A DNA stretch of 64,000 bases, taken from positions 38,867 through 102,866 of the forward strand of contig CADAAA010000006.1 of the NCBI GenBank assembly GCA_902785785.1. The letters are read 5' to 3'. This document shows, piece by piece, positions 29,515 to 53,811 of the stretch (the first letter of the stretch is position 1; each line of letters starts with the position of its first letter). A model generated the notes under the pieces. The model did not search any database. It saw nothing but the letters and a program-made list of their open reading frames with translations, and was not told where the DNA came from. A program made the translations under genes and the position numbers. This DNA comes from an uncultured Bacteroidia bacterium. GTDB lineage: Bacteria; Bacteroidota; Bacteroidia; Bacteroidales; UBA932.

Positions 29515-29643
29515 AAGCACAAAACCTCTCGTTTTGTGCTTTTTTTACGCTAAACAGGTCGGAATAAGCACATTTCCTCAGTATTTGTTCTTATTTCAAT
29601 GGACTTTGGCTCATTTAAGCACAAAAGAGGCAGAGCTGTGCTT
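29515..29643. repeat. Dyad array family B, upstream (3 units, 51 bp period)
   Basis: AAGCACA-N13-TGT(G/T)CTT starting at 29515, 29566 and 29617. Confidence 0.85.
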
Positions 29644-29715
29644 TGAAATTCAAAAAAGGGGGGGGGTAGCAGGCAGAAAAGTATGAATTGATAAGCCTCC
29701 TTGCCAGAAGCATGA

Positions 29716-29723
29716 TATCTTTG
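29716..29723 (+). promoter_or_regulatory. Bacteroidota -7 promoter element for the HUH gene
   Basis: TATCTTTG about 25 bp upstream of the ATG at 29748. Confidence 0.6.
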
Positions 29724-29747
29724 CCTTGGACATAACTTCAAGGAAAC

Positions 29748-30701
29748 ATGAAAAACTTTAGTTTTGAGCAAAAGGAAAAGGAACGGATCTCCTTTCATGA
29801 AGCAGAGACGGTTTGTGAATACCGTTTCTCGCAATCAGGCAAATGCTGGCATCTGTATACGCCTGAAGATTTTGAGATTATCTTTTCTGATGATGACGAC
29901 TTCCGGGCTGGCATGACCATTCTCGCACTTTGCGCACTGTCGTTTCCCGGAATCAGGATATTCACTTTCGAATGGATGAACAACCATCTCCATGTTACGC
30001 TTGCTGGTGATAGGGCGGAGATTGATTCCTTTTTCAAAATTCTGAAAGACATACTGGGAAGGTATCTTAAGAACAAGGGAAGGACGGTTTCTCTCAATTC
30101 CTGGAGCTATGGGTTACGCGCTGTCAATGACCTGAGGGATATGAGAAGCGTAATCGCCTACAACAACCGGAACGGCTTCCTCATCAACGAATCAGAAACG
30201 CCCTTTACCTATCCCTGGGGTGCTAACCGATTCTTTTTCAACAGATACGCTTTCGCGGAACATGAGCGCAGCACGGAAAGATTGAGAATCCGTGATGTCT
30301 GGAAAGAGTTCCATACGCGTGCCTTCGACAAGTTCTCCGGTCTTGTGATGCTGGACGGATATGTTTCTCCTCTGGAGTGTTGTCATGTCAGTGAAGCGGA
30401 AGGCCTGTTCCGCAACGCACATCAGTATTTCCATTCCGTCTCCAGGGATATGGATGCACAAAGACGGATATCCAAAGAGATCGGGGACAGGATCACTTAT
30501 ACGGATAATGAGATGTACAGCGCCGTAGCAGAACTATGTCGAACGACTTATAGTGTCACCGCACCGGCACTCCTGCCCAAAGAGGCTAAGGTCGAGGTCG
30601 CCAGAAAGATGCACTTCGACTATAATGCAAGTGAAAAGCAAATCGCACGGATCCTCAGGGTTGACCCCGGACTCGTTCCCTCGCTGCTGGCGCGGAAATA
30701 A
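29748..30701 (+). mobile_element. HUH/Y1 tyrosine transposase-like gene (RAYT/TnpA-REP-like) with C-terminal helical/HTH extension; cognate of family B arrays
   Basis: IFSDDDDF, MNNHLH (HUH), AYNNRN (catalytic Tyr), TYPWG; paralog of 52730-53590; visibly lower GC than neighbours. Confidence 0.85.
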
Positions 30702-30710
30702 GCCTCGGCC

Positions 30711-30892
30711 AAGCACAAAAAACGGGCTTTTGTGCTCCCACGGCTGTTTATATACTCGGAAAAAGCACATAATGTGCGGTTTCGTGCTTATTTCTCTTAA
30801 TCTGAGTCAAAATAAGAACAAAATAGGGCAATCTGTTCCTATTTTGAGGAGAAACTGCCAAAAAAAAGAACAAATCAGGCAGTTCTGTGCTT
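30711..30892. repeat. Dyad array family B, downstream (4 units, 51-52 bp period)
   Basis: AAG(C/A)ACA-N13-(T/C)GT(G/T)C(T/C)(T/C) starting at 30711, 30763, 30814 and 30866. Confidence 0.85.
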
Positions 30893-30977
30893 AAGGGATG
30901 CGGTGAGACGGCCCGGGACAAGATGTCGGGCTTCCGAGGGCCAGCGGAAGGAAGCTGGTCCAGGCAGGGAAGAGAGG

Positions 30978-31997
30978 CTAGTCCTCGTCGGGCCAGCCGG
31001 GGGAACGGAGGGGGAGCTCGACGCCGTCGGGGGTGACGAGGACCGTACCGGCTTCAGGCTGCGCCAGGTGGCCGATGATGTCGAAGGTCTGGAACTCGCG
31101 GCGGAACTTCTCCAGAGACAGGATGGGCACGGCGAAGAGCAGCCTGAAGTCGTCCCCGCCGTTCATGGCGGCGGAGAACGTGTCGATGCCTATCTCCTTG
31201 CCGAGCTGGAAGGAATTGCCTTCGAAGGGAATCTTGTCGGCGTAGACCTTGGCGCCGAGGCCGGTGTCGCGGGAGAGCCGCTTGACGGCGTCCGCGAGGC
31301 CGCGGGTAACGAAGTACCCGGCCGAGGGGACGATCTCCGCGGCCTCGAGCTGCGCGACCGTGGCGGCGCCTAGCTCGGGCTTGAGGTACGCCGCGACGAG
31401 CATGCGATACTGCGAGAGCGCTTTCTCGCGCTCGGCGTGGTCGGCCTCGCCGGCGTCGAAGCGCCGGCGTTCGCGCTCCAGCGCCTGCATTCCGAGGAAT
31501 GCTGCGCCGAGCGACCCGCTCACGCAGAGCAGGTCCTTGGACTTGGGCGCGGGGCGCCGCCTGGCTGTGAGCAGCGCGGTCTCGCCAACGGCGGACACGC
31601 TGATGCACAGCCCGTTGCGCGACGGCGCCAGGTCGAGGTCGACCTGTTTGTAGCCGTGCTCCTTGGCCGCCGCGACGATGCCTTCCCAGAGCTCGCGCAC
31701 CTGCGCGAAATCCAGCTTGGCGGAAACGCCCAGCCGGACGCTGAGCGCCGCAGGGTGCGCCATCTGCGCATACAGTTCACCCGTCACGCCGACGACGCTC
31801 TTGTATCCGAGATGCTTCAAAGGGAAATACACGAGGTCGAAGTCAATGCCTTCAAGCATCACTTTCGACGCATACGCGATGTATTCGCGCCCGGTAGCCT
31901 CGAAGCTGTTGTGTCCGAATGCCTCGAACGGGGTTCCTTCGTAAAGCGCCTTGACGGCCTCTACCCGGCCAAGGTCCGAAAAGTCCTTTCCTGCCAT
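30978..31997 (-). CDS. ThiL-like (thiamine-monophosphate kinase fold) protein, probably catalytically degenerate
   Basis: LEGIDFDLVYFPLKHLGYKS, DLLCVSGSLGAA, NGGDDFRLLF match ThiL, but the GDD, TD and DxSD motifs are substituted. Confidence 0.75.
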   Translation of the reverse strand: MAGKDFSDLGRVEAVKALYEGTPFEAFGHNSFEATGREYIAYASKVMLEGIDFDLVYFPLKHLGYKSVVGVTGELYAQMAHPAALSVRLGVSAKLDFAQVRELWEGIVAAAKEHGYKQVDLDLAPSRNGLCISVSAVGETALLTARRRPAPKSKDLLCVSGSLGAAFLGMQALERERRRFDAGEADHAEREKALSQYRMLVAAYLKPELGAATVAQLEAAEIVPSAGYFVTRGLADAVKRLSRDTGLGAKVYADKIPFEGNSFQLGKEIGIDTFSAAMNGGDDFRLLFAVPILSLEKFRREFQTFDIIGHLAQPEAGTVLVTPDGVELPLRSPGWPDED

Positions 31998-32062
31998 AAC
32001 TATCGATCGTTTGCTTCCTGCAAAATTAGGTTTTTTCTGTATATTTGTCAAAACCACCCTTT

Positions 32063-34033
32063 ATGAAAAACCTGTTGACCCTCACTCTGGCCCTCTTCAT
32101 GGGCCTCGCCGCCGGACATGCCGAAGAGTATCATGTCGCCAAGGGCGGCTCGGACCTCAATCCCGGCACCAAGGACGCCCCCTTCCTCACTATCTCCAAG
32201 GCAGCGGCCGTTGCGCGCGCCGGAGACATCGTCACCGTACACGCCGGCACATACCGCGAGTGGGTCAACCCCCGCAATTCCGGATCGGACAAATACGCCC
32301 GTATCACTTACCAGGCCGCCGAAGGGGAAGAGGTCTGGATCAAGGGATCCGATCAGATAACCAACTGGACTCGCGAAAAAAAATCCGATGTCTGGAAAGT
32401 CGTCCTCCCCAACAGCTATTTCGGCGATTTCAATCCCTACAAGGAGATCCTTGCCGGAGACTGGGTATACTACACCCAGCCTTACGTCTGCCTCGGCGAG
32501 GTCTACCTCAACGGAAAAGCACTGTGGCAGATCGGCACCCGGGAAGGAGTTAATGATACTTCCGAACACCTCTGCTGGTATGTGGAAGTGGATGACAACC
32601 AGACCGTCATCTACGCCAATTTCGGCGGAGCCGACCCCAACAAGGAGCTGGCCGAGATCAACGTGCGTCCTGCGGTCTTCTACCCCAAGCTCTCCGGAGT
32701 CAACTTCATCACCGTCAGGGGATTCCACCTGTCCCAGGCCGCCACTCAGTGGGCTCCTCCCACAGCCTATCAGGAAGGCTTGATAGGCCCCCACTGGAGC
32801 AAGGGTTGGGTCATCGAGGACAATGAGATCAGCCACTCCAAGTGCGTCGGCGTCAGCCTCGGCAAGGACCGCGCCTCCGGCCATAACCGCTGGACTACCG
32901 AGCGCGAGCTCATCGGCTTCAACCGCGAGCTCGAGTCCATCTTCAAAGCTTACAACATGGGCTGGAACAAGGAGAATATCGGCTCGCACGTCATCCGCCG
33001 CAACGAGATCCGCGACTGCGGCCAGGCCGGAGTCGTCGGACACCTCGGCGGCGTCTTCTCCACCATTGAGGACAACTATATCCACGACATCAACTACAAC
33101 GTCCAGTTCGGCGGCGCCGAAGTGGGCTGCATCAAGCTCCACGCCGCCATCGACGTCCTTGTCAAGGACAACGTCCTCGACAACGGCGTCCGCGGCATGT
33201 GGCTCGACTGGCAGGCCATAGGCACACGCGTGACCGGCAACACCTTTGCGCACAACACCACCTGCGACCTGATGATAGAAGTCAGCCACGGCCCCTGCCT
33301 GGTGGACAACAACATCATGCTCTCCCCTGTCGCCTTCCTCGACATGGCCCAGGGAACGGCCTTCGTCCACAACATCATCTGCGGCGAAGTGACCTTCAGG
33401 CCGGTGCCGAACCGCTATACCCCCTATCATGCCCCGCACTCCACGGATGTCGTGGGCGTGATGAATTTCCCCGGAGGGGACGACCGCTTCTACAACAACG
33501 TGTTCTACGGCGCAAAAGCGGGCCTGAGCGTCTACGACGAGCGCCCGCCCTACTACCCCGGCATCTTCCGTGACATGAACACCGTCACCGTCCGTGACGA
33601 GATGCCCGAGCCCTTCGCAGAGAGGCTGCGCAAAGGCTCGGTCCCGGCCGGCAGCAACCAGGGCGACAACTTCTGGCTGCCGATGCACGTGGCCGGCAAT
33701 GTCTATTACAACGGTGTACCGGGCTACAAGTTCGAGAAAGGCGCAGCCACGGGAGGCAATGTTCCCATGCCGGAAATGGAATACCGCGAGAACGGTATCT
33801 TCCTGAAATTCACCCTCGATGGAGCATGGAACAGCGCTTCCACCAGACCGGTGGATACTGAGATGCTTGAGAAGGCTTACTATACTGACAGTTATTACGA
33901 GAACCGCGACGAGACTCCGCTGCGCATCGACCACGACTTCGCCGGCGCGCTCCGCAATTTCGCGGCCCCGAAGCCCGGCCCGTTCGAGAACGCTTCCGTC
34001 GGGCAGAATGAAATAATGATTTGGAAATTCTAA
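32063..34033 (+). CDS. Glycoside hydrolase family 120 beta-xylosidase-like protein (secreted, beta-helix)
   Basis: EYHVAK.GSD, YREWV.P, AATQWAPPTA.Q.GLIGP.WSKGW, GHLGGVFS, IKLHAAIDV, WLDW, EVSHGP, GGDDRFYNN match XylC-type GH120. Confidence 0.88.
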   Translation: MKNLLTLTLALFMGLAAGHAEEYHVAKGGSDLNPGTKDAPFLTISKAAAVARAGDIVTVHAGTYREWVNPRNSGSDKYARITYQAAEGEEVWIKGSDQITNWTREKKSDVWKVVLPNSYFGDFNPYKEILAGDWVYYTQPYVCLGEVYLNGKALWQIGTREGVNDTSEHLCWYVEVDDNQTVIYANFGGADPNKELAEINVRPAVFYPKLSGVNFITVRGFHLSQAATQWAPPTAYQEGLIGPHWSKGWVIEDNEISHSKCVGVSLGKDRASGHNRWTTERELIGFNRELESIFKAYNMGWNKENIGSHVIRRNEIRDCGQAGVVGHLGGVFSTIEDNYIHDINYNVQFGGAEVGCIKLHAAIDVLVKDNVLDNGVRGMWLDWQAIGTRVTGNTFAHNTTCDLMIEVSHGPCLVDNNIMLSPVAFLDMAQGTAFVHNIICGEVTFRPVPNRYTPYHAPHSTDVVGVMNFPGGDDRFYNNVFYGAKAGLSVYDERPPYYPGIFRDMNTVTVRDEMPEPFAERLRKGSVPAGSNQGDNFWLPMHVAGNVYYNGVPGYKFEKGAATGGNVPMPEMEYRENGIFLKFTLDGAWNSASTRPVDTEMLEKAYYTDSYYENRDETPLRIDHDFAGALRNFAAPKPGPFENASVGQNEIMIWKF

Positions 34034-35097
34034 TGAAGAAAAAGAGATTCCGGGCAGGAAAGATACTCCTGCTCTTAGGACTGGTAATACTCGCATGCGC
34101 ATGGAGCGCCTTCGGACCGATGGTAAAAGGCGCGCTTTCCGTAAAGGAACTGGACAAGGGGCTCTACTACATGGAGTTCAAGGGTGACGACGGCTTCGAC
34201 GGATTCGTCGAATCCGGAGGGGCATGCAGCCCGCAGGAGATGGGCAGCTACATCTTCCGCTTCCTGTCCAGGGGCTTCGCCAAGGGCCCGGAGACCGGGG
34301 AGGCAGCCGGCGCCTACGGCTGCGCCGCCTTCACCGTCCGGGACGCGGAAGACCACTTCATGATGGGCAGGAACTTCGACTTCTCCGAATCGACGGCGAT
34401 GATCCTCCACAGCCGGCCGAAGAACGGGTACGAATCCATAGCCACATTCAACCTCCGTTTCCTCGGCTTCGGAGAGGACTGGAAGCCGGATTCTTTCGCC
34501 AACAAATACATGGCTCTCAGCTGCTTGTTCGTCTCGCTGGACGGCATGAACGAGAAGGGACTGGCCATCGCAGACCTGATGGCGGGAGACGATACCGAGA
34601 CACATCAGGACCGTGGCCTTCCTGACATGACCACCACCTCTGCACTCCGTTACGTCCTCAACCGCGCAGCCACGGTCGATGAAGCGATACGTATCCTGAA
34701 CAGTATCGACATGCACTCGGATATCGGTACCGCCCACCATTATGCCATCTCCGACGCCTCGGGGCGCTCGGTCGTGGCGGAGTACATCGACGGCGAACTG
34801 GTCGTAACCGACACTCCGATAGTCACGAACCATTACCTCGCACCAGTATGGTTCGGCAAGGGACAGATACCCGGGGACAACCGCTACGATATCCTGGAGG
34901 ACGAATATGTGGAGTATCTCGGAATCTTCGACAACGACAGCCTAAAAGAATCCATGGCGTCTGTCAGCCAGACGCCTTCCGGCAGTTTCGGCGGCACACA
35001 GTGGACCGTCCTATGGGACCTGGACCGCCTCACGGCCACCTACTACCTGCGCCGCAACTTCGACAAGGCGTACGAATTCAAGCTTGGGAAAAAGTAA
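34033..35097 (+). CDS. Linear amide C-N hydrolase (Ntn hydrolase; C45/choloylglycine-hydrolase-like) with propeptide
   Basis: GCAAFTV (Cys nucleophile), GRNFDF, LDGMNEKGLAI, HYAISDASGRSVV.E, TNHY. Confidence 0.85.
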   Translation: MKKKRFRAGKILLLLGLVILACAWSAFGPMVKGALSVKELDKGLYYMEFKGDDGFDGFVESGGACSPQEMGSYIFRFLSRGFAKGPETGEAAGAYGCAAFTVRDAEDHFMMGRNFDFSESTAMILHSRPKNGYESIATFNLRFLGFGEDWKPDSFANKYMALSCLFVSLDGMNEKGLAIADLMAGDDTETHQDRGLPDMTTTSALRYVLNRAATVDEAIRILNSIDMHSDIGTAHHYAISDASGRSVVAEYIDGELVVTDTPIVTNHYLAPVWFGKGQIPGDNRYDILEDEYVEYLGIFDNDSLKESMASVSQTPSGSFGGTQWTVLWDLDRLTATYYLRRNFDKAYEFKLGKK

Positions 35098-35103
35098 CGG
35101 AAA

Positions 35104-35126
35104 AACCTGCGGAACCCCCGCAGGTT
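35104..35126. terminator. Bidirectional terminator between convergent genes
   Basis: AACCTGCGG/CCGCAGGTT stem flanked by A and T runs. Confidence 0.7.
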
Positions 35127-35129
35127 ATT

Positions 35130-38100
35130 CTATTTCCGGTTGACGGTGTAGGAGATGCCGAGGTCGCGCAGACCGTATATGAGGTCGTTGGTGACGGCGA
35201 CCTGGAATTTGCGGGACTTGAACTCGACGTTGTACCTGGTCTTGGGATCGTACAGGTACATGCCCAGATCGGTCTTGCCCTTGTTGGCCTTCAGGAGCTT
35301 CACGAGGTCCCTGCGAAGGGATTCGTTGAGCTGGTCGGTCGTAAGGTTGATGGCGAAGGTCTTGAGCATGGACTCCGTGACATTGCCCAACATGCTGACT
35401 TTCTTGACCTTGAAGCCGTAAGGGGCGGTCTTGCCCTGGGCTTTCTCCTCTGGCTTGAGATAATACTTTTCCTTGATGTCGCCCTCGACGAAGACCTCAG
35501 AATGGAGGCCAAGCAGGGGCAGCCAGGCTTCGCAGTCCTTGCCGAAGACGGCCAGCTCGTACGAGCCGCCGAAGTCTTCGATGGTGGCGCGGAGCGACGG
35601 CGAGCCGTTGCGCGTGACGCTCCTCTTGACGTCCGTGACGATGCCCGCGAAACTGACGGTGGCGTTCTTGTGTCCCTGCTCACACTCCTCTACCTTGGCC
35701 TGGACGTCGCCTACGCTGCAGGTCGTGAAATTCTCGATCTCGAAGGCGTAGCGGTCCAGCGGATGCGCTGAGATGTACATGGTCACAAGCTCCTTCTCCT
35801 GCTGGAGCAGGGCAAGGACGTCCTCCTCCGCGGGAGGGGCGGGCATGGCCGGACGCTTGGGCTTCATCTCCTCGGCGTCTCCGAAGAGCGAGAATGCGCT
35901 GTCGACCGAGTCGTTGCGGTAGTTGTCGGCATAGCGTGCGAGCTCGTCGATGAAGAGGTCGCCGCTCGCTCCCGGCAGGAAGAACTGCGTGCGCTTGCAT
36001 CCGAAGGAGTCGAAGGCGCCCGCATACACGAGCGACTCGAGCGAGCGGCGGTTCACCACGCCGCCCATGCGCTCCATGAAGTCGTACACATCCTCGAAGA
36101 GGCCGTTCTCCTCACGCTCCTTGATGATCATGTCCACGATATTGGAGCCGAAGCCCTTGATGCCGCCCAGGCCGAAACGGATGGCTCCGGCCTTGTTGAC
36201 GGTGAAGTGCGCGGAACTCTCGTTGACATCGGGATTCAGCACCTGAAGTTTGTGGGCCTTGCAGTCCGCCATGATCTTCTTGATCTCATCGCCCTTGGAT
36301 AGGTTACAGGAAAGGTTGGCGGCCTGGAACTCGGCGGGATAGTGGCACTTGAGCCAGCCGGTCTGGTAGCTCACCCAGGCGTAACAGGTAGCGTGGGACT
36401 TGTTGAAGGCGTACTGGGCGAACTTCTCCCAGTCCTTCCATATCTTGTCGAGGGTCTTCTCGGGATGGCCGTTGGCGACACCCTGCTTCATGAACTTGTC
36501 CTTGAGCTCCATCATCACGGCTATCTGCTTCTTGCCCATGGCCTTGCGAAGCTTGTCAGCCTCACCCTTGGTGAAGGAAGCGAGCTTGCGGGAGAGAAGC
36601 ATCACCTGCTCCTGGTACACCGTCACGCCGTATGTCTCGGCGAGGTACTCCTCCATCTCCGGGAGATCGTACTCGATGGGCTTGAGACCGAGCTTGCGGT
36701 CGACGAAGTTGGGGATATAGTCCATAGGCCCCGGACGATAGAGGGCGTTCATAGCGATGAGGTCCTCGAAACGCTCGGGATGGAGGCGCTGGAGCCAGGT
36801 CTTCATGCCCTCCGATTCGAACTGGAACACGCTCATGGTGTCACCGCGGCCGTAGAGCTCATAAGTGGGCTTGTCGTCTATGGGGATGGCCTCGATGTCT
36901 ATGTCGATGCCGTGGCGCTGCTTGATGTTGTCCAGGCAGGTATGGATGATGGAAAGGGTATTCAGCCCGAGGAAATCCATCTTGAGCATGCCGACATCCT
37001 CGATGTAATGCCCGTCATACTGCGAGGTCCAGACGTCCAGACCCGTCTCCTTGTCCTTGGAAAGGCAGATGGGGATGTAGTCGGTGAGATTGGCGGGACC
37101 GATGATAGTGGCGCAGGCGTGCTGGCCGGTCTGGCGGATGCAACCCTCCATCTGACGGGCGAACCTGAGCACCTCGCGGTTGATCTCGGGACCGTTCTCT
37201 AGCTCGTTGCGGAACTCCGGAACAAGGCGGAAGCAATTGTCGAGGTTGATCTTGACATCGACCTCCTCCATACCCTTCTGGAAGGTGCGCATTTCCTTTT
37301 TCTTCTCGCCCGGATGATCGGGGTCATCCACCTCGACCTCCTTCTCGAACCTCTTGAAGCCCGGCTTCAGCTCGTCGAACTTGGGGTTGAAAGGATACTC
37401 TTTCTCCACCCTCTCGCTCAGACGGTCGGGGACCATCTTGGCGAGACGGTTGGACTCGTCGATGGAGACGTTGCTGATGCGGGCGATGTCCTTGATGGCG
37501 CTCTTGGCGGCCATCGTACCGAAAGTGATCACGCGCGACACGTGGTCGGCTCCGTAGGTCTTCTCGACGTACTCGTGGGCCTTGGTAAGGTCCTCGAAAT
37601 CCACGTCGATATCAGGCATGGAGATACGGTCGGGATTGAGGAAACGCTCGAACAGGAGGTTGTACTTGATCGGGTCGAGATTGGTGATCTTCAGGCAATA
37701 GGCGACGACGGAACCCGCCGCGGAGCCGCGCCCGGGTCCCACGAGGGACCCCATCGCGCGCGACGCGGCGATATAGTCCTGCACTATCAGGAAGTAGTCC
37801 GGGAAGCCCATGCGGCAGATGGTCTTGAGCTCGAAGTCGAGACGCTCGGACTGCTCGTCCGTGAGCGTCTCGCCGTAGCGCTCGTGCGCACCCTTGTAGC
37901 AAAGGTGGCATAGGTAAGCCACGGACGCACAGAAATCAGCGCCGCGGTCCCGGCCCTTCTTGTCACAGCGACCGGCGTCGATGACGTCCTTGTATTTCTC
38001 TAGATAATGGTCCAGGTCGGCCAGGAAGGAAGGCTCGATCTTGAACTTCGGCAACACGTGGTCGCGGTCTATGGAGTACACCTCGACCTTGCCTGCGACC

Positions 38101-38945: not shown

Positions 38946-38970
38946 AGGTGGAAGTTTGAGAAACAAAGAT

Positions 38971-45022: not shown

Positions 45023-45033
45023 GGGCGACAGTA

Positions 45034-46050: not shown

Positions 46051-46085
46051 GGATACAAATATAATCAAAAATACAAGGAAACCGC

Positions 46086-47291
46086 TCAGTCAAAGATACC
46101 GAGTACCTGAAGACACATGCGGACATCGTGGTAGGGGCACTTCCATTCTCCGGCCTTGTCGGCCAGGAAGCTGGGTTCACCCTCCGCGTCGCAGTACCAC
46201 CACCACTCCCCGCCGTCCCGGTCTACTATACGGTCGGATATGTATCCCCACGCTTTCTGTGCCCGTTCGAATCCCTCTGGTACGGAAAGATACTTCCATG
46301 CCCAGAGGTTGCCGACGACGGACTCCGCCTGTACCCACCAGTGGCGGTCGTTTACGACGGTGCCGTCGGGCTTCACCTCGCAGATCAGGCTGCCGTCGCG
46401 CCGGATGCCTTCGAGTCCGGCGGCATACAGCCGCCGGGCCAGGGCGCGCGCGCGCTCGACCGTCCGGAAATCCCGGACGGCCATGGCGCACTCCTGCGCC
46501 AGCCACGATGTCTCGATGTCATGTCCGAAAGAGACGCCACCCGGTATGACAGTCCAGTCTCGGTCGAAGTACAGCTCCAGATGGCCTGTGGCATGATCAG
46601 TCATCTTGGTTTCGAGTATATCCAGCAGGTTGACCACCCTGTCCCTCAGGACGGGATCCGGCCAGATCCTGTAAAGGTTCGCATACCCCTCCAGCAGATG
46701 GAGATGGGAGTTCATGGTCTTGGCGCAGTTCACGTCACGCGGACTCAGGCGCATGTCCTCAAGCGGTTTGAAATCCCTGCCAAGAGCCTCGATATAGCCC
46801 CCGTGAACGGTGTCGGCAAAGTGCCTTTCGACTATGTAGTAGATATTTATGGCAGCCTTGAGAGCCTCGTCATCCCCCGTCGCCGCAAAGAACTCGGACA
46901 GGGCATAGATGCCGAAAGCCTGTGCATACAGCTGTGCCTTGTCGACCAGTCTCTTCCCTCTTGCATCCAGAGACCAGTATACGCCTCCGTACTTGTGGTC
47001 CATGAAGTGGGAGACAAAGTAATCCTTGGCGTGGACCGCCATGATCAGATGCTCCTTGCGATTGAACCGGCGGTACAGGGCGGAATATGTCCAAAGGATG
47101 CGCGCGTTGAGGACGGCTCCTCGGGGAGCGTCCTCCTGCAGCGTGCCGTCCCCGGTGATACGCCCGAAGAACCCGCCCTGCGGATCCTTCAGCCTCTCCC
47201 AGAAAGGCAGAATGTTGTGTTCCAGGACATCGTGTACGTCCTTCATCATCTTGTCAGCGCCAACAAACAGACCGTTCTCCGCCATACTCAA
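46086..47291 (-). CDS. AGE-family epimerase (cellobiose/mannobiose 2-epimerase-like)
   Basis: LNARILWTYS, YAQAFGIYALSE, KTMNSHLHLLE.Y, GHDIE.SWL, WWVQAE, WKCPYH. Confidence 0.88.
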   Translation of the reverse strand: MSMAENGLFVGADKMMKDVHDVLEHNILPFWERLKDPQGGFFGRITGDGTLQEDAPRGAVLNARILWTYSALYRRFNRKEHLIMAVHAKDYFVSHFMDHKYGGVYWSLDARGKRLVDKAQLYAQAFGIYALSEFFAATGDDEALKAAINIYYIVERHFADTVHGGYIEALGRDFKPLEDMRLSPRDVNCAKTMNSHLHLLEGYANLYRIWPDPVLRDRVVNLLDILETKMTDHATGHLELYFDRDWTVIPGGVSFGHDIETSWLAQECAMAVRDFRTVERARALARRLYAAGLEGIRRDGSLICEVKPDGTVVNDRHWWVQAESVVGNLWAWKYLSVPEGFERAQKAWGYISDRIVDRDGGEWWWYCDAEGEPSFLADKAGEWKCPYHDVRMCLQVLGIFD

Positions 47292-47383
47292 ATAAGGTTT
47301 CAGTTACATCGTAAAGATAATCATTTTTCCCGATTCCCCGAAGCTTTTAGCCATATCTTCCCTATACACTGTCACACTTTCTC

Positions 47384-47494
47384 CGTGGTAACTAAATGTC
47401 TGACGTACAAAGAGTTCCCACAAATGACTACCATTTCCAGAGAGGGGTAGTCAAATATATCAACTTATTAAATATAAAGCAGATACGGACCACG
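47384..47494. repeat. AT-rich ~110 bp imperfect inverted-repeat element with central hairpin
   Basis: CGTGGT/ACCACG ends; central TGACTACC/GGTAGTCA. Confidence 0.45.
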
Positions 47495-47515
47495 TTATGA
47501 CACAATAGTAATGCG

Positions 47516-48535
47516 TCATGAGTCGAGGGAGAGAATAATGCTGATGACTTCGTTGTAGTTGGCGGTGCCGGAGGAGATGCGGTTGCCTTTGAGATAGAGA
47601 TTGTATATCCAGTGCTGGATGCGGCCGACGACAGGACTGTAGAGGTCGTCCCAATGGGCTTGTTCCTCCCGGTATGCCTCGACGACCTCCGGGCGGAGGC
47701 CGGCAGCCCACGCGGCGTACGCCTCCTCCGGGAGCACGCGGGCTGCATTGCTCAGCACATAGGGCAGCAACGCCTGGTAGCCGGCGTAGCGGAATGCCGG
47801 CGAGGCGGAAGCGGTACAGGCTTTCCAAGCCCAGTAGTTGGCCTCCGCCTCACTGCTGACACCCAGCAGATGAGACAGTTCGTGGGCATAGACGAAAGGA
47901 TACTGGAGCGGCAAGACATCGCTGCCAATCTGGATTTCGTTGAAGAAAGGTCCTACGAAACCCATTACACTCACTGCGGAATAGAGGCGGTCGAAGAGGA
48001 GGTGCTTGGGGCGTTGCCAGGCCTTCGGCCGGGCCAGCCCCCAGCGCTCAGGCAAAGCGTCGTAGAACGCTTTGACCTCCCGTTCGAGCGCCGCCGTATC
48101 TATGGATTCAACGGGAACATAACTGCCATTTAAGCCGTCCACATATTCCTTGAGAAATGCTTCGAAACGTTCTGTCTCGAAAGTTGCGGGCCGGACCCCG
48201 GCACGGTCGAAGATGCTGCTGCGGAAATAGTTAAGCCCCCAACATGCATAGAACCAGACTACCACCCACAGGATGATGTTCAGCAGCGGCAGCCAGCGCC
48301 GTCTCAGGCGTGCAAGGCACGCGATGACGGCTACCGCTGCCGCCACGGCCAATATCTCCTCCAGGGAAAACGGCACTAAAGCACTCAGCCGGGACACTGC
48401 TCCGGACAGACGCGGATAGACCGCGGTAGCGTACAGGTCGGCCAGAGCCGTCTGCCTCCGGCAAACGGCAACGCCGGCCAGAGCCGCTCCCGCGACTCCC
48501 GCCGCCACCAGTTGCTTCCTGATCCTCCTTTCCAT
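47516..48535 (-). CDS. DUF3810 domain-containing protein
   Basis: WGLNYFR, GF..PFFNE, PFVYAHELSH.LG..SEAEANY. Confidence 0.85.
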   Translation of the reverse strand: MERRIRKQLVAAGVAGAALAGVAVCRRQTALADLYATAVYPRLSGAVSRLSALVPFSLEEILAVAAAVAVIACLARLRRRWLPLLNIILWVVVWFYACWGLNYFRSSIFDRAGVRPATFETERFEAFLKEYVDGLNGSYVPVESIDTAALEREVKAFYDALPERWGLARPKAWQRPKHLLFDRLYSAVSVMGFVGPFFNEIQIGSDVLPLQYPFVYAHELSHLLGVSSEAEANYWAWKACTASASPAFRYAGYQALLPYVLSNAARVLPEEAYAAWAAGLRPEVVEAYREEQAHWDDLYSPVVGRIQHWIYNLYLKGNRISSGTANYNEVISIILSLDS

Positions 48536-48568
48536 AAAAACAAAATCCCTCCCGGGCGGGGAGGGATT
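48536..48568 (-). terminator. Intrinsic terminator of aspS
   Basis: AATCCCTCC/GGAGGGATT stem followed by a T-rich tail on the minus strand. Confidence 0.7.
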
Positions 48569-48574
48569 GAAAAG

Positions 48575-50341
48575 CTATTCCTTGACGCAGGTCTTGATCT
48601 GCAGTTCCTCGAGCTGGGTGTCGTCGATGAGGGACGGGGAGTCGATCATGACGTCACGGCCCTGGTTGTTCTTCGGGAAGGCGATGTAGTCGCGGATGGT
48701 CTCCTGGCCGCCGAAGAGGGCGCAGACGCGGTCGAAGCCGAAGGCCAGACCGCCGTGGGGCGGGGCGCCGAACTTGAAGGCGTTGATGATGAAGCCGAAC
48801 TTGTACTCGGCCTCCTCCTTGCCGATGCCGAGCACCTCGAACATGCGGCTCTGCATATCGGCGTTGTGGATACGGATGGATCCGCCGCCGAGCTCGGTGC
48901 CGTTCAGGACGAAGTCATAAGCATTGGCGCAGACGCGCTCAAGGTCTTCTTTCTTGTCCGAATAGAACCATTTCTCATGCTCCGGCTTGGGAGCGGTGAA
49001 GGGATGGTGCATCGCGTAGAAGCGGCCATCCTCCTCGCTCCATTCGAGGAGCGGGAAGTCGACGATCCATAGAGGTGCGAAGACCTTCGGGTCGCGGAAT
49101 CCGAGGCGGCTGCCCATCTCGATGCGCAGCACGCCGAGCATGGTCTGCGTCTTGCGCTTGGGACCGCAGAGCACCAGCACGAGGTCGCCGGCCTTGGCCT
49201 CGACGGCCCCGGCGATGCCGGCGAGCTCCTCCGGCGAATAGAACTTGTCCACGCTGGACTTGAAGCTTCCGTCCTCGTTGCACTTGATATAGACCAGGCC
49301 CTTGGCACCCACCTGCGGGCGCTTGACCCACTCGGTGAGGGCGTCCAGCTCCTTGCGGGTGTACCCGGCACATCCGGGAGCGGCGATGGCGCCCACATAT
49401 TCGACGCTGTCGAACACGGAGAATCCGTGACCCTGGACCTTGTCCGTAATCTCATGGATCTTCATGTCAAAACGTACGTCGGGCTTGTCGGATCCGTAGT
49501 AGTCCATGGCGTCATACCAGCTCATGCGCGGAAGCGGATCGGGGATGTCGACGCCGAGGGCGTTCTTGAACATCGAACGCATCATGCCCTCGAACATGTT
49601 CAGGACATCCTCCTGCTCCACGAAACTCATCTCACAGTCGATTTGCGTGAACTCCGGCTGGCGGTCGGCGCGCAGGTCCTCATCGCGGAAGCAGCGCACG
49701 ATCTGAAAATAGCGGTCATAACCCGCGACCATCAACAGCTGCTTGAAGGTCTGAGGCGACTGCGGGAGGGCGTAGAACTGGCCGGGGTTCATACGGGACG
49801 GCACGACGAAGTCGCGCGCTCCCTCCGGGGTGGACTTGATTAGGTAAGGGGTCTCGATTTCCATGAAACCCTGTCCGTCAAGATAGGTGCGGACCTCCTG
49901 GGCGAGGCGGTGGCGAAGGGCCAGGGCGCGCTGGAGCGGAGGCCTGCGAAGGTCGAGATAGCGGTACTTGGCGCGGATGTCCTCGCCACCGTCGCTCTCC
50001 TCCTCGATGGTGAAGGGGGGAGTCACGGATTTGTTCAGGATGTTGATGCTCTCAATAGAGACTTCGACATCGCCTGTGGGCATCTTGGGGTTCTTGCTCT
50101 GGCGCTCGACTACGGTGCCGGTCACCTGGATGACGAACTCGCGACCCAGCGAGGTCGCGGCCTCGACCAGCTCTGCAGGAGCGGCCGCGTCGACGACGAG
50201 CTGGGTGATGCCGTAACGGTCGCGGAGGTCGACGAAGGTCATGCCTCCGAGCTTGCGGGATTTCTGCACCCATCCCGCGAGGGTGACTTTCTTGCCTTGG
50301 TCGGCGAGCCTCAGCTCACCGCAAGTGTGGGTTCTGTACAT
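48575..50341 (-). CDS. aspS: Aspartate--tRNA ligase
   Basis: [60 protein letters not shown]. Confidence 0.97.
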
Positions 50342-50388
50342 ATCTCGAGATACTTTTGTTCTATCCGGCAAATGTAGCAAAATTAAAC

Positions 50389-52431
50389 CTATTTAAGGCA
50401 GACGAAGGCGAAGAATTCGTCAATCCGGCGCTTCTCCTTGAAGCGTGCGATGTATGCCATGTCGCACAGGTCGTCCGCGAGGGCGGCCGGAACACGCTCC
50501 GCCATGCAGATATCAGCTCCATAGCGGGACATTATCTCCTCGTGGCTGTGCTTGTAGCGATAGCAGTCGCGGCGCCCGGCATAGGCGCAGAAATACTGCT
50601 CGCCCTGCTGCTTGCGGGCCTCGTCGAAGACCACCATGTCCGCCCAGATCTTGAACACGTCCGTGGAATGGGCGAAGTTCATCATGTCCGGAGTATAGCC
50701 TCCCGGCGGGCGCATGTTGACCTCCAGGCCGACATAGTCGCCCTTCTTTCCGAGGCCTTCGCGGTCGCGGTCCAGCTGGAAGTATTCCAGGTGGACAAAG
50801 CGGCTCTTGATGCCGAAGGCTTTCACCGTGCGGCGGCCGATGGCGGCAAGCTTGGCCGGGACGGTCTTGTTGGTCCAGTAGCAGGTCTCGCTGTTGTCGT
50901 GGACGATCTCCATGATGGGGGTCGGGAAAACGGAGTTATTCTCGAATATGGGCTCACCTTCCGCGTTGTAAATGGCGTCATAGCTTACAAGCAGGCCGGT
51001 GATGAACTCCTCGATGACGTATGCTCCGTAGTTGTCCTTATGGGCCAGGAACCAGTCGGCGAGCTCGGCGCCGTCATGGATCTTGAAGGTACCGGAAGCG
51101 CCCATGCCGCTGTCCGGCTTGGCGATGACCGGATAGCCGGTCTGCTTGACGAAAGCCTTGACTTTAGCCTCACCTTCCGAGCCCTTGATCTGGCGCGCCG
51201 TCGGGATGCCGCCCTGGGCGTAGTATTTCTTCATCTCGGACTTGTTGCGGATGGAGGCTACACGGTCGCTCTTGATGCCTGTCGTGACATTGAAGTCGGT
51301 GCGCAGGCGGGCGTCCTGCTCGAGCCAGTATTCGTTGTTGGATTCGATCCAGTCGATCTTGCCGTATTTGTGTGCGAACCAGGCCACGGCCCGGTAGACC
51401 TCGCCGTAATCCTCGAGGTTGTCGACCTTGTAATAGTCGTTCAGTGCGCCGCGGAGTTCATCGTTGAGCTCGTGCCAAGGCGCATCCGCGATGCCCAGCA
51501 CATTGGCTCCGTTCGCCCTCAAGCCGGAGCAAAAGTGACTGTATGTCTGTGGGAAATGCGGGGAAATAAAAATGACGTTCATGAAAGCGTATGTTTGGTT
51601 TTCGGCAGAAACCTGCCGCATCTGTCCGTTGGAAATTTCCCAGGCGAGGCCGCGGAGTTCCTCCCGGCCGTCCTTGGAGATGATATATCCCCCGTCGGGG
51701 AAAGTGTAGAATGCCTGGCGCCAGCTTTCAGGGAAGATGATGTCCTCGAAGAGCCTTTTGCCATCGACCTCCGCATAGCGGACCTGGTCATAGTGAGGTA
51801 CTATCTGGCGGGTGGTCAGCCCCAGGCCTTCCAGCCAGCGCGGAGCGGTACTCTCGCCCGGAAGTTCCGGGTGCGAGTACACGCGCTCCGCGCAGTTCAT
51901 CGACCCGGCGCTGCAGCCCATGACAAGCCCGTCGAAACCCTTCAGGAGCTCTTTGAGGCGTATCTCATGCAGGAAACGGTTCTGGGTCGGGACGTGGCCA
52001 CCGCAGAGGACTATCCAGTCCGCGGAGCGGACGAGGCCGGCGGCACGCTCCGCGTTGCGCCGGTCCAGCATCGTCACCGCGGCGGGCTCTATCCCGGACT
52101 TCCGGATGCATTCCGTCATAGACTCCAGGACGTAGTCCGTGAAGCCCCTGTCGTCCGGCGCCGCGCTGACCAGCAGCACCCGCGGCCCTGCGGGCACGCC
52201 GCACTCAGCGCGCGGCCCGGCCTCGAGCCAGTCTGCATCAACAGCCGCCGGATTCGTAGCCTGCTTTTCAGCGTGCCGCCCCACCGGCAGAGTATTCTGC
52301 GTCTCCGTCAGCCTGGTCGCCAGCTTCGCCGCCAGCGCCGCCTTCACCTCAGCCAGCAGGCCGTTGTCTTCTGTAAAATGGTCCTCTCCGAAGCGTGTAG
52401 GACTCCCTGTCAGTATTACCGTCTTACCCAT
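50389..52431 (-). CDS. Fusion: peptidase S51/type-1 GATase-like domain + ATP-grasp domain
   Basis: N-domain [26 protein letters not shown]-domain begins [11 protein letters not shown] (51582) with [25 protein letters not shown]. Continuous reading frame. Confidence 0.8.
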
Positions 52432-52516
52432 CTGTCTGCGCAACTCCTAATGACATCTCTGTCATAGCGCCTGCAAAGATAATAGAAATGCTTCAAATGC
52501 CGTATATCCCCTGTCG

Positions 52517-52585
52517 TCTCCCTCCCCCTTCTTCTCCCCCTTCCTCTCCTCATCTCGCCTTCTCATTTCGCCCTCCTTTCCTCTC
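52517..52585. other. Polypyrimidine tract (plus strand)
   Basis: About 69 nt of almost only C/T, immediately left of the family A doublet. Confidence 0.8.
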
Positions 52586-52589
52586 AAAG

Positions 52590-52677
52590 TGCTGTAGACG
52601 GTCCAAAGATTGGACCGTCTACAGCAAAAACGCCCCAGAATGACGTAGACGGTCCAGCCCTTGGACCGTCTACGTCA
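52590..52677 (+). repeat. REP-like doublet family A, copy 3 (3-prime flank of the HUH gene)
   Basis: TGCTGTAGACGGTCCA-aagat-TGGACCGTCTACAGCA and TGACGTAGACGGTCCA-gccct-TGGACCGTCTACGTCA; two perfect 16 bp stems with centres 51 bp apart. Confidence 0.95.
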
Positions 52678-52729
52678 CTTCAGCGGCATCGACGGCATCC
52701 ATGTCAGATGGCGCAGTTACCGAAACTCC

Positions 52730-53590
52730 TTACCAACCGTCAAGCATCCGGGCGGCCTCTTCATAAGGGATACCGGTCACACGGCAGATTTGGTTGAGGT
52801 CCGCACTGAAACGGCGTCCGAGCTGCCGAAGCAACTCTGTTTTCTGCTCCACGCCCAAGTCTGAGATCCTGTTCGACCTAAATAAAGAGTGACACAGATC
52901 CTCGCTTGCCGAAAGGATATTCTGATCCCTGAAAGACGGAGCCGCTCCTCCTTCAAGCCTTTGACGGGCTTTGGAAGATGTCCTGAGGAAGTATCCCAAC
53001 CGCTTCGGGGTCCGGAACAGGGCTTCTACGCCCTTCACCTGTACGTAGGATTCCGGCAGGATATACCCTCCCGATCCTATCTTATAGTCTCCAGGAAGCA
53101 TGACATTGCTTTTCAGCATCCGCATCTGAGCCCTTCCAGAAAACTCCCCCAAACACCTCCCCGGGAAAGGGTTGTCATTAAAAAACACGTTCCCTGTCCC
53201 CCAAGGATAGCCGGAAGGCTCGAAACAGATGTTCGCTGCCACGCTGTTCATCAATACGTAGGCAATGGCCCTCTCAAGGGACTCGTCGCTGTCATTTACC
53301 TCCCTGATATCCACTCCGTTACGGCGCAGGAGCTCGTTTACTCCATATTTCCTGTAGAAATAAGAGGCATACAGGCGCTTGAACGTGTTAATGAACAGTT
53401 CCGCATCCTCACGGCTGCATGCAAGCACGAAATGGACATGGTTGGACATAAGGATGAATGCCAGAACCATTACTCCGGACAAAAAGGCTGCGACAGCCAC
53501 ATAGTTCATCGCCACGCGGAAGTCTTCCCCGTCCCGGAACCACAGGCGGTCTTCCAGATGCTCCGTCGTAATCAAGTAATAGTGTTTCAT
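52730..53590 (-). mobile_element. HUH/Y1 tyrosine transposase-like gene (RAYT/TnpA-REP-like) with C-terminal HTH-like extension; cognate of family A doublets
   Basis: WFRDGEDF, MSNHVH (HUH), AYVLMN (catalytic Tyr), GYPWG; no TnpB partner; no terminal IRs/TSD recognised. Confidence 0.88.
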
Positions 53591-53700
53591 AGTCAAGTCT
53601 GTTTAACGCCTGCAAGATAGATTTTGTGTCGGATACTCCAAGGAACCATAAAGATTCATATCGGGGTATTTCCACGTTTTTTATCTTTTTGTATTCTCGA

Positions 53701-53793
53701 AATGACATAGACGGTCCAGCAATTGGACCGTCTACAGCAAAAACGCCCCGAAATGACGTAGACGGTCCAGTCTGTGGACCGTCTACGTCATTT
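53701..53793 (+). repeat. REP-like doublet family A, copy 4 (5-prime flank of the HUH gene)
   Basis: TAGACGGTCCA-gcaat-TGGACCGTCTA and AAATGACGTAGACGGTCCA-gtctg-TGGACCGTCTACGTCATTT; 51 bp spacing. Confidence 0.95.
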
Positions 53794-53811
53794 GCCGACG
53801 GGGAAACAGCC

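Follow-up and report, generated by a model that had tools for sequence, protein, structure and literature searches.

RAYT-like HUH/Y1 proteins of a rumen Bacteroidales genome and their hairpin arrays with a constant 50–52 bp period

The 2.36 Mb genome of a rumen Bacteroidales bacterium encodes ~11 intact HUH/Y1 paralogues, most of which are paired with their own small hairpin repeat, and the repeat unit is 50–52 bases long regardless of the hairpin sequence. Genome-wide, 54 hairpin arrays (180 units) have been located, mostly outside genes. Two of the paralogues, p1 and p2, lie in the window, the 64,000-nucleotide stretch of DNA that was analysed. These two proteins are very probably domesticated REP-associated tyrosine transposase (RAYT)-type nucleases or transferases of single-stranded DNA that act on cognate hairpins, including in trans. 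Their arrays are read as a REPtron/BIME-like system, a RAYT with its REPs, in a long protein subfamily, and the pairing of enzyme and repeat is apparently an undescribed variant of the known RAYT/REP partnership. The features of the window are as follows.

18467–18550, minus strand: orphan family A doublet in the opposite orientation, stems altered, pairing retained
24105–24192, plus strand: orphan family A doublet unaccompanied by a gene; family A has 12 loci genome-wide
29515–29643, no strand: family B array of three 27-bp dyads (AAGCACA-N13-TGTKCTT), upstream of p1
29748–30701, plus strand: p1, RAYT-like HUH/Y1 protein, 317 aa, with NHLH, Y..xN, YPWG and a helical C-terminal extension of ~130 aa
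30711–30892, no strand: family B array downstream of p1, four dyads, period 51–52 bp
52590–52677, plus strand: family A doublet on the 3′ side of p2, two hairpins with centres 51 nt apart
52730–53596, minus strand: p2, RAYT-like HUH/Y1 protein, 288 aa, with NHVH, Y113..N117 and YPWG
53703–53790, plus strand: family A doublet on the 5′ side of p2, architecture and orientation as in the 3′ doublet

The first-pass annotation placed p1 correctly at 29748–30701 (+), while its end for p2, 53590, is 6 bases short of 53596. It gave the p1 coordinates first and yet labelled the p2 repeat as locus A. The arrays that it described are real, but the TAGACGGTCCA repeat belongs to the gene at 52–53 kb and AAGCACA to the gene at 29–30 kb.

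As had been annotated, p1 and p2 are homologous (BLASTP, 28% identity over 284 columns, E 1e-24), and both show all of the listed motifs, F.D..DF, NHxH, Y...N, YPWG and GY..P...E.LFR, with the catalytic residues intact. In the alignment, H53, H55, Y113, Y130, D25 and the YPW motif are invariant in all 11 intact paralogues. The retention of the HUH and Tyr residues among paralogues with 16–29% identity to p2 indicates that the nuclease is under selection. The AF2 model of p2 (mean pLDDT 90) combines a Y1 transposase fold at the N-terminus with a C-terminal part made up entirely of helices. Against the PDB, Foldseek ranks 4ER8 first (E 9e-5), the E. coli TnpA_REP bound to its REP hairpin, and the TnpA structures of ISDra2 and IS608 next. 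The NCBIfam model REP_Tyr_transpos (NF047646) matches p2 with 35.3 bits (E 9e-9), below its curated cut-off of 80 bits. The search with Pfam Y1_Tnp (PF01797) proposed in the first-pass annotation gives p2 a score below the curated cut-off, 15.2 against 23 bits, and leaves p1 unmatched. Profile searches with p1 gave no Pfam match and no NCBIfam match of its own, but in the protein tree its clade includes four other paralogues of the same genome with a support of 100/99. The RAYT and Y1_Tnp models each match four of the 11 paralogues, all below cut-off, and the NCBIfam IS200 model matches one (E 0.002). The members of the subfamily are 288–332 aa long and are annotated solely as “hypothetical protein”.

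The C-terminal extension is present in all 11 paralogues. It had been proposed to contain an HTH, which the searches do not bear out: the profile of this part finds nothing significant in the PDB and no Pfam match, and Bac_DnaA_C, HTH_23 and HTH_28 give no Pfam hit at E ≤ 0.1 in any paralogue. The last four helices show a weak fold likeness to the ParB/Spo0J and DnaA DNA-binding domains, with all matches at E > 1.

At p1, the upstream dyads start at 29515, 29566 and 29617, with a period of 51 bp and 24-nt linkers of unrelated sequence. The downstream dyads start at 30711, 30763, 30814 and 30866, and the start-to-start distances at this locus are 51, 51, 52, 51 and 52 bp. The pattern search found seven matches to AAG(C/A)ACA-N13-TGT(G/T)CTT in the window, with 0.39 expected. 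The p1-flanking units are partly decayed and form weak hairpins; their arms are 7 bp long, their 13-nt spacers do not pair, the differences between arms are uncompensated, and strong folding as single-stranded DNA is confined to the first unit. The GTAG foot is absent from family B and its relatives. Some units have the look of a terminator, with a stem followed by a T run (e.g., 29515–29548). The only Rfam family found in the 64-kb window is one tRNA.

The p2 repeat, TAGACGGTCCA-N5-TGGACCGTCTA, also has seven matches in the window, with 0.00 expected, starting at 52595, 52646, 53708, 53759, 24110, 24161 and 18468 (start-to-start distances 51, 51 and 51 bp). Each ORF is bracketed by its own palindromes at 51–52 bp, as the first-pass annotation held. 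In the 3′ doublet, hairpin 1 is TGCT-GTAGACGGTCCA-N5-TGGACCGTCTAC-AGCA, hairpin 2 is TGAC...GTCA, and the linker between them is 14 nt long, AAAACGCCCCAGAA. Folded as DNA, the family A doublet forms two stems of 16–17 bp (−40.6 kcal/mol, z −15). Since each hairpin is a perfect palindrome, a doublet has two possible folds, a pair of hairpins or a single long one. The stems have GTAG at the start and CTAC at the end, paired within the stem, and the two doublets flanking p2 are direct, not inverted, in this genome. The contrast with classical GTAG-plus-hairpin REPs and REPINs that had been drawn earlier does not hold for family A, which has GTAG/CTAC feet, strong hairpins and a REPIN-like doublet.

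Genome-wide, family A is an element of ~90 nt with two hairpins, and the doublet is found at all 12 of its loci (24 hairpins), with one hairpin degenerate at one locus; GTAGACGGTCCA is the commonest 12-mer of the genome (31 copies). Family B-type repeats form at least 12 arrays with ~100 units. The dispersal is mostly outside genes: 40 of the 54 arrays lie outside ORFs of at least 200 aa, although such ORFs span 89% of the genome. Counting a weaker match at C2:32867-33637 along with the 11 paralogues, the genome contains 12 matches to the protein family, and recurrent 12-mers flank seven of the 12, with at least 14 copies genome-wide for six and 7 copies for p1. Besides p1 and p2, five paralogues each have copies of a single palindromic repeat on both sides. 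The flank 12-mer search found no recognisable repeat at the paralogues C7, C6c and C2 and at the weaker twelfth match. At C6d, the paralogue most closely related to C2, the element is of another kind, ~110 bp long and bounded by TIRs.

The stems covary. In family A, a 16-bp stem shows several Watson–Crick pair types at five positions while the 5-nt loops are free, in the family B superfamily the stem is 9 bp long and three of its positions show three to four pair types, and individual copies differ from the family consensus by compensated changes in the stem. Compensated stems and free loops fit single-strand hairpins at least as well as duplex operators. Arrays have 2–7 units, and the loops within the repeats vary. 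The centre spacing is constant at 50–52 bp, with values per repeat family of 51 bp in 26 cases and 52 bp in 3; 51 bp in 29 and 50 bp in 1; 51 bp in 9; and 50 bp in 14. Also, among short direct-repeat distances in the genome, 51 bp and multiples of it predominate, with 863 9-mer self-matches at distance 51, 848 at 102 and 502 at 153, compared with ~100 at other multiples of 3. A super-period of 102 bp with two alternating unit types is common in the regular tandem arrays. The orientation of a unit cannot be read from its stem because each unit is self-complementary. In the p2 clade, 39% of the linkers contain the symmetric motif W4-N-GGCC-N-W4, versus 1% of shuffles.

Other species of the genus also carry homologues, as do dozens of MAGs of rumen Bacteroidales, some of which are named Candidatus Cryptobacteroides; many of the homologues lie on very short contigs. 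With these relatives, the 4ER8 match and the REP_Tyr_transpos score, which is below cut-off, the earlier assignment to a RAYT/TnpA-REP-type Y1 HUH enzyme in Bacteroidales is upheld. At the homologous loci the gene is likewise bracketed by a repeat, and the stems differ while the 51–52 bp spacing is the same. The predicted ~51 bp periodicity is found in other genomes, with 20 spacings of 51 bp and 4 of 52 bp in one set and 15 and 18, respectively, in a second. Overall, at least 15 distinct stem sequences from many species share a spacing of 50–52 bp. Stem sequences track the protein phylogeny, and the repeats are cognate and dispersed, which bears out the earlier proposals that recognition sequence diverged with the protein, that protein and repeat share a co-phylogeny and that the spacing is conserved. 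Orthologues of p2 at 98, 90 and 84% identity occupy the same position between the EF-G-like and S51/ATP-grasp genes, showing that p2 is inherited vertically. Homologues at 59–62% identity are found in different gene neighbourhoods. The flanking arrays are mutually inverted at some loci (C5b in this genome, L014 and L040).

The closest known system is the E. coli REPtron. Both systems (for E. coli: Ton-Hoang 2012, PMC3333891; Nunvar 2010, PMC2817692) have a single-copy Y1 HUH gene between its own palindromes, extragenic dispersed palindromes and regularly spaced tandem clusters. Regularly spaced tandem REPs are already known there as BIME-2 (PMC3333891; PMC2817692), and TnpA_REP cleaves at CC|T in linkers and has built tandem BIMEs in vitro (PMC3333891). 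The GGCC-W of the linkers recalls these CC|T sites. However, the protein is nearly twice as long as TnpA_REP, with a C-terminal helical part of ~150 aa, ~11 paralogues occupy one small genome in place of one, and copy numbers are in the tens rather than the hundreds of E. coli REPs. BIME-2 alternates REPs and inverted REPs with linkers of varying length, whereas the arrays described here consist of self-complementary hairpins at a fixed 50–52 bp. The Pseudomonas REPIN-RAYT system (Bertels and Rainey 2011, PMC3116915; Bertels 2017, PMC5581495) also has a doublet as its dispersed unit, one RAYT per repeat family, several pairs per genome and vertical inheritance. It belongs to another phylum and another protein subfamily, and unlike REPINs, the hairpins here are perfect palindromes and the repeats of the p1 clade occur in arrays of as many as 7 units, not in doublets.

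In their motifs, the proteins resemble class 2 (TnpA_REP) of Quentin 2018, which has NHxH and Y...N, in contrast to the DH[VI]H and Y...Q of IS200 transposases (PMC6006769 table). “Double-foot” REPs are described in the same work for subclass 2.4 of TnpA_Y1, found in Cyanobacteria and Bacteroidetes, and the family A stems with GTAG and CTAC resemble them; subclass 2.6, from Bacteroidetes, has atypical structures (PMC6006769). Subclass 2.1/TIRYT has a C-terminal HTH or DnaA_C domain, and REPs were not found for it (PMC6006769). A long C-terminal extension is shared with subclass 2.1, but the genes described here own cognate repeats and lack the Bac_DnaA_C, HTH_23 and HTH_28 hits. They also differ from the Quentin 2018 subclasses in length (288–332 aa against means of 179–238 aa), in having no W[EQ] between HUH and Y, and in having YPWG in place of the SS motif. 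With the IS200/IS605 transposases of IS608 and ISDra2, which recognise subterminal hairpins in single-stranded DNA, they share the fold and catalytic layout; the present system differs from that family in lacking tnpB and a multicopy gene, in its class 2 motifs and in repeats that are dispersed without the gene.

In the mechanism proposed here, each paralogue would recognise its own REP-like hairpin, with its gene sitting between copies in REPtron fashion, and would work in trans on other chromosomal copies, where it would cut single strands and join them again, probably at the replication fork. Such catalysis on hairpins could spread repeat units and amplify them into short tandem arrays like those of E. 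coli BIME-2. The CC|T sites at which E. coli TnpA_REP cleaves its linkers suggest, as an analogy, that the cut may fall at the linker centre, at W4-N-GGCC-N-W4 in the p2 clade; if successive linkers were cut at the equivalent point, an array would gain or lose exactly one period. An IS200/IS605 transposase is an obligate dimer holding two hairpins. On this model, the constant period can tentatively be attributed to a dimer or oligomer of the enzyme that grips two neighbouring hairpins, only arrays of such spacing being amplifiable. Several points weigh against a RAYT-type explanation: the scores are below cut-off, p1 is unmatched and copy numbers are low for REPs; family B lacks the GTAG foot, the p1-flanking hairpins are weak and some paralogues have no repeat; no unit was observed to be polymorphic for presence or absence; and such an explanation leaves the conserved C-terminal domain unaccounted for.

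The arrays could alternatively, in line with the first-pass annotation, be phased duplex binding sites, about five helical turns apart, whose arms are bound by the C-terminal domain in a cooperative assembly. The protein would then be mainly a nucleoprotein organiser or regulator, with hairpin cutting secondary or lost. This is unlikely, even though it accounts for a spacing that is kept while stem, loop and linker sequences change, for the extension in all paralogues and its ParB/Spo0J and DnaA likeness, for the short, uncompensated arms and non-pairing spacers at p1, and for the symmetry of the p2-clade linker motif. The HUH and Tyr residues are nevertheless invariant in 11 paralogues that are only 16–29% identical to p2, the best structural match is a hairpin-bound single-strand enzyme, and compensated stem changes off the consensus are not favoured by a duplex-binding dimer. 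The C-terminal fold matches, all at E > 1 and with no Pfam HTH hit, also speak against it, and 51 bp corresponds to 4.86 turns, an inexact phase.

That each gene with its arrays is an active IS200/IS605-type IS, with the arrays as ends and the orphan arrays as derived MITEs, is very improbable. The Y1 transposase fold, the IS-like inverted arrays at C5b, L014 and L040, the differing neighbourhoods of the 59–62% identical homologues and the many short contigs would suit such an element. Against it, the genome has no near-identical gene copies, and protein identity between paralogues is never above 50%, which means that none was copied recently; p2 orthologues keep their position down to 84% identity, and the p2 doublets are direct. 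Also, the motifs are NHxH and Y...N (class 2) rather than DH[VI]H and Y...Q (PMC6006769 table), and the IS200 model matches a single paralogue. It is more improbable still that the arrays have nothing to do with the protein and are host features lying next to it by chance, such as terminators, small-RNA genes or CRISPR-like arrays. The terminator look of some units (29515–29548) and the superficially CRISPR-like layout of 27 + 24 bp for repeat plus spacer recall such elements, but the gene family is bracketed by differing, equally spaced hairpins in many genomes, with stems that track the protein tree, and Rfam families are absent from the window apart from the tRNA. A CRISPR array has identical repeats and unique spacers and occurs as a few long arrays beside cas genes; here the inner part of the repeat, the loop, varies and 54 loci have 2–7 units each, and on this repeat and array layout a CRISPR array was rejected.

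The constant distance of 50–52 bp outlasts the replacement of stems, of loops and, for the p1 clade, of linkers. It is conceivable, if rather doubtful, that this distance is a ruler set by the protein, with an oligomer, perhaps through the C-terminal domain, holding two hairpins and cutting between them at a fixed point. To our knowledge, an HUH enzyme that measures arrays has no described counterpart among RAYTs. If the ruler exists, arrays would grow by whole units, each new hairpin would land at a measured distance from one already in place, and an HUH enzyme would possess a measuring mechanism for repeat arrays.

The two RAYT-like HUH/Y1 genes of the window, p1 and p2, encode homologous proteins (28% identity over 284 aligned columns, BLASTP E 1e-24), and each lies amid its own dyad repeats, confirming the claim of the first-pass annotation. 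The repeat around p2 (family A) is a GTAG...CTAC hairpin found as doublets. Its pattern, TAGACGGTCCA-N5-TGGACCGTCTA, matches at 7 places in the window, where chance predicts 0.00. The dyad repeat around p1 (family B) follows the pattern AAG(C/A)ACA-N13-TGT(G/T)CTT and has 7 matches against 0.39 expected, three before p1 and four after it. Beside p1 and p2 the start-to-start distance is 51 or 52 bp throughout in both families. The feature is genuine, and its statistics leave no ambiguity. The original observation was correct apart from its locus labels, as the p1 coordinates come first, yet the p2 repeat was called locus A.

Genes and family A repeats in the window (repeat starts from the pattern search)
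29748-30701, plus strand: p1, 317 aa
52730-53596, minus strand: p2, 288 aa
52595 and 52646: family A starts on one side of p2
53708 and 53759: family A starts on the other side of p2
24110, 24161 and 18468: family A starts away from p2

No RNA family was found by Rfam at the p1 or p2 locus, and its sole match in the window is one tRNA gene (22353-22441). Beyond its doublets the p2 cassette is bordered by low-complexity tracts (52510-52585 and 53800-53925), one CT-rich (polypyrimidine) and the other GA-rich (polypurine), which form inverted repeats of each other. These tracts are present, with differing lengths, at the orthologous loci of the relatives with 98% and 84% protein identity; at the p2 locus of the 90% relative the 3'-side tract is absent. 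Nine consecutive G residues (29658-29666) stand between the left array and p1, ~80 bp ahead of the p1 start. No other homopolymer of at least eight G or C occurs in the window, and the tract could be prone to slippage.

Family models for the Y1_Tnp and RAYT relationship put forward at first pass give matches below the curated cut-off for p2 and none for p1. The p2 protein matches the NCBIfam REP-associated tyrosine transposase model (E 9e-9; 35 bits, below the cut-off of 80 bits) and Pfam Y1_Tnp (E 0.025), while p1 matches neither. About 11 paralogues have been identified in the window's genome (2.36 Mb, 12 contigs), every one an intact ORF of 288-332 aa, and pairwise identity never goes above 50%. 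The 11-paralogue alignment shows full or near invariance of both HUH histidines, the Y...N tyrosine, Y and W of YPW(G/S), and an N-terminal aspartate. The AlphaFold model of p2, built from 28 sequences, has a mean pLDDT of 90, and its top Foldseek match among solved structures is E. coli TnpA_REP with a REP hairpin (4ER8), followed by the ISDra2, IS608, and IS200 transposases. A full-length profile searched against 1.84 billion representative proteins retrieves at least 670 clusters (50% identity) at E <= 1e-30 and 8,400 at E <= 1e-10. Among the 120 closest p2 relatives listed, most are nameless and the few named ones are called "hypothetical protein". The system is best described as REPtron/BIME-like, in what appears to be an undescribed RAYT-related subfamily.

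The C-terminal 100-150 residues are helical, and an AF2 model of this part alone has a pLDDT of 80. In Foldseek, the last four helices resemble ParB/Spo0J and, lower in the list, DnaA DNA-binding domains, with all matches at E > 1; the domain has no match in Pfam and none in a profile search of PDB sequences. Therefore, we will use only the term "helical, possibly HTH-like" for this domain, whose modelled fold may be weakly HTH-like. The proposal that a duplex complex driven by the C-terminal HTH is to be preferred over hairpin recognition is not supported by the evidence so far, and such a complex is a less likely possibility.

Family A occurs at 12 loci in the genome as a two-hairpin element of ~90 nt, with one hairpin degenerate at one locus. 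The element consists of hairpin 1 (TGCT...AGCA foot), the linker AAAACGCCCCAAAA, and hairpin 2 (TGAC...GTCA foot), and is found in both orientations; GTAGACGGTCCA is the commonest 12-mer of the genome (31 copies). As single-stranded DNA, the doublet is predicted to fold into two stems of 16-17 bp (-40.6 kcal/mol, z -15). Across the 24 hairpins, five of the 16 paired stem positions show two or three kinds of Watson-Crick pair, and the five loop positions are free. Family B belongs to a set of related dyads that includes AAGCACAAA, GAGCACAAA, GCGCACAAA, GCGCACGTTT, AAGAACAAA, AGGAACA, and CTGAACAAA. The dyads CCGTGCTC and CCGTGCGG likewise flank p1-clade paralogues, and all of these form arrays of 2-7 units. 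In 103 array units of the family B set, the stem is 9 bp long, each position is paired in 63-100% of units, and three positions show 3-4 pair types. Altogether, the genome has 54 arrays with 180 units (7.3 kb). Of the arrays, 40 are outside ORFs of at least 200 aa, although ORFs of that size make up 89% of the genome. A CRISPR reading was rejected on the variable loops within the repeats and on the size (2-7 units) and number (54) of the arrays.

Periodic dyads form an own repeat on both flanks of p1, p2, and the paralogues C5a, C5b, C12, and C4. Paralogue C1 is instead flanked on each side by a single 36-bp palindrome with GCGGCAGATGCG arms (G000:C1:216269-216304 and 217450-217485, locus L008, outside the window). 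Ten perfect palindromes of this type and further single arms bring the arm copies in the genome to 20. A GGCCGAAA motif follows or precedes each C1 palindrome and recurs in the linkers of 51-bp arrays. The repeat of paralogue C6d is a ~110-bp element with inverted CGTGATTTGTAA ends and a central TCTCCCTTGC palindrome (G000:C6:117638-117746 and 118744 onwards, locus L002), an architecture which is that of a TIR-MITE and not of a 51-bp array. There are 16 occurrences of its end motif in the genome, with inverted pairs formed four times and a solo end at 17635-17646 in the window. No recognisable repeat was found in the flanks of C7, C6c, and C2, the last being the closest paralogue of C6d.

Among the short tandem repeats of the genome the 51-bp unit is the dominant one, as indicated by the recurrence of 9-mers within 200 bp: 863 at a distance of 51, 848 at 102, and 502 at 153, against a background of ~100 at other multiples of three and 10-40 at other distances. 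The same period is found in each repeat type, or nearly so.

Start-to-start distances of repeat units in the window's own genome
AAGCACA type: 51 bp, 26 times; 52 bp, 3 times
GCGCAC type: 51 bp, 29 times; 50 bp, once
CGTGCTC: 51 bp, 9 times; 102 bp, 6 times, where one unit is degenerate
CTGAACA: 50 bp, 14 times; 49 bp, once
Family A: 51 bp at 12 of 12 loci

Linkers of the same family are unrelated between arrays (mean identity 0.36-0.45) and alike within one array (0.59-0.78), which indicates that arrays grow locally by duplicating one or two units. A single mobile 51-bp unit that includes the linker was rejected for the p1 clade on the same values. Arrays that have arisen independently still have equal unit length. 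Since perfect stems reach varying lengths into the linker, the invariant is the centre-to-centre distance of the hairpins, and a linker of constant length counted from the foot of the hairpin is not supported. An origin of the period as 17 codons, with arrays kept in frame, was rejected, since most arrays are extragenic, one family has a period of 50 bp, and many p2-clade doublets have 52 bp. Many arrays alternate between two types of unit or linker and have a 102-bp super-period (G000:C5:135857-136089 and 180656-180886 among others), and the 9-mer matches at 102 nearly equal those at 51. Outside the window, a 1118-aa open frame with FAD_binding_4, FAD-oxidase_C, and 4Fe-4S domains (G000:C9:24214-27570, locus L137) crosses a five-unit 51-bp array as predicted 17-residue repeats (residues 783-861) and continues for ~250 residues. 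The frame is either one gene with an in-frame array inside it or a pair of genes linked through an array that is open by chance; C10:38951-40483 and C11:40135-41310 resemble it.

The neighbours of p2, an EF-G-like gene and a peptidase S51/ATP-grasp gene, are constant in the orthologues with 98, 90, and 84% protein identity. Point changes distinguish the loops of these loci and the linker is kept, while the stems drift, being imperfect at 90% identity and reading TCGACGGTCCA and TTGAAGGTCCA at 84%. An insertion sequence does not fit this pattern of kept position and slow stem drift. In the 84% relative, the 3' doublet (L040:4890-4975) is opposite in orientation to window 52590-52677, so that the flanking doublets are inverted there and direct in the window, pointing to local inversion or replacement of a doublet. 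Homologues with 59-62% identity occupy other chromosomal positions. For the p1 locus, its two neighbour genes were not found adjacent, nor was a close p1 orthologue found, in 80 other species of the genus. The inheritance pattern at the p2 locus is that of a domesticated, vertically inherited gene with repeats turning over slowly.

With the 11-paralogue profile, members of the family turn up in 20 of the 24 other species examined within the genus, at up to 13 copies in one genome; 16 other families of the order (one genome each) give weak partial matches only. The dyads flanking homologues in the fetched loci are very different (CGAACAAAA, TTGCAGCA, CGGGATCA, TTTCGTTCA, CCCGTAGGTCC, GTTAACGTGCAC, TGCTCCCTGCG). 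The ~51-bp periodicity proposed for homologues is recovered there: adjacent similar dyads are 51 bp apart 20 times and 52 bp apart four times, every other distance occurring at most three times. A p2 scan of species-representative genomes gave 80 loci from rumen Bacteroidales MAGs, two of which are named Candidatus Cryptobacteroides. Only 51 (15) and 52 (18) recur as distances here, along with 11 at ~26, which arise where neighbouring arms pair with each other across the linker instead; under strict criteria, 24 of the 80 loci have such a spaced dyad pair. A maximum-likelihood tree separates the p1 and p2 clades (support 100/99 each), which are mutually only ~25% identical and have the 50-52 bp design in common. 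Within each clade the stems are alike among close relatives, as in five ..GGTCCA stems around p2, in agreement with the earlier suggestion that the recognition sequence diverges with the protein. In the p2 clade the linker is the conserved part and the stems are replaced, with W4-N-GGCC-N-W4 in 39% of linkers against 1% in shuffles.

The established activity of Y1 HUH transposases is to bind single-stranded DNA hairpins, cleave close by with formation of a 5'-phosphotyrosine link, and join the strands again. E. coli TnpA_REP requires the REP hairpin, cuts CC|T beside inverted REPs and inside linkers, with GGCC|TACA as a strong site, and makes extra BIME units in vitro (PMC3333891). By analogy, each paralogue would bind its own hairpin and cut at the linker centre, in the p2 clade at the GGCC-W motif, and equivalent cuts in successive linkers would allow whole units to be added, removed, or moved. 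Such cutting would give amplification in one-period steps but leaves the equal period of unrelated stems and linkers unaccounted for. The explanation that we prefer, tentatively and with somewhat less than even confidence, is that a dimer or higher oligomer holds two adjacent hairpins, and only units at that centre distance would be good substrates. The model for this is the IS608 dimer, which holds both its ends, and the conserved C-terminal domain may contribute to the holding. Alternatively, the constant period may reflect common descent of a 51-bp unit together with selection against length change, which is compatible with the oligomer explanation.

To our knowledge, work on RAYT/REP systems has been almost confined to Proteobacteria, usually with one to few enzymes per genome. 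By comparison, this 2.4-Mb rumen genome has ~11 intact, deeply diverged predicted enzymes, most of them paired with a hairpin of their own. Genomes with several RAYTs and a separate REP class for each, and RAYT-REP co-evolution, are known (PMC6006769; PMC3686654). REP doublets (REPINs) are already known, as are regularly spaced tandem REPs, or BIMEs (PMC3333891), and "double-foot" GTAG...CTAC REPs form subclass 2.4, which includes Bacteroidetes (PMC6006769). Head-to-tail REP dimers are reported to be rare, and spacers to be 20-100 bp (PMC3733652). In the literature searched, no description was found of the long protein subfamily, of such an expansion (about a dozen paralogues) in small rumen genomes, or of a 50-52 bp unit kept across many unrelated hairpin sequences.

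Many homologues lie on contigs of 1-3 kb, and metagenome assemblies probably break at these repeats. Orthogonal enzyme-hairpin pairs of this kind could serve as HUH tags. As a natural series in one cell, the matched pairs are good material on how Y1 HUH enzymes read hairpin sequence, and the unexplained invariant, a unit of 51 +/- 1 bp, makes the growth of REP arrays a question open to direct experiment.
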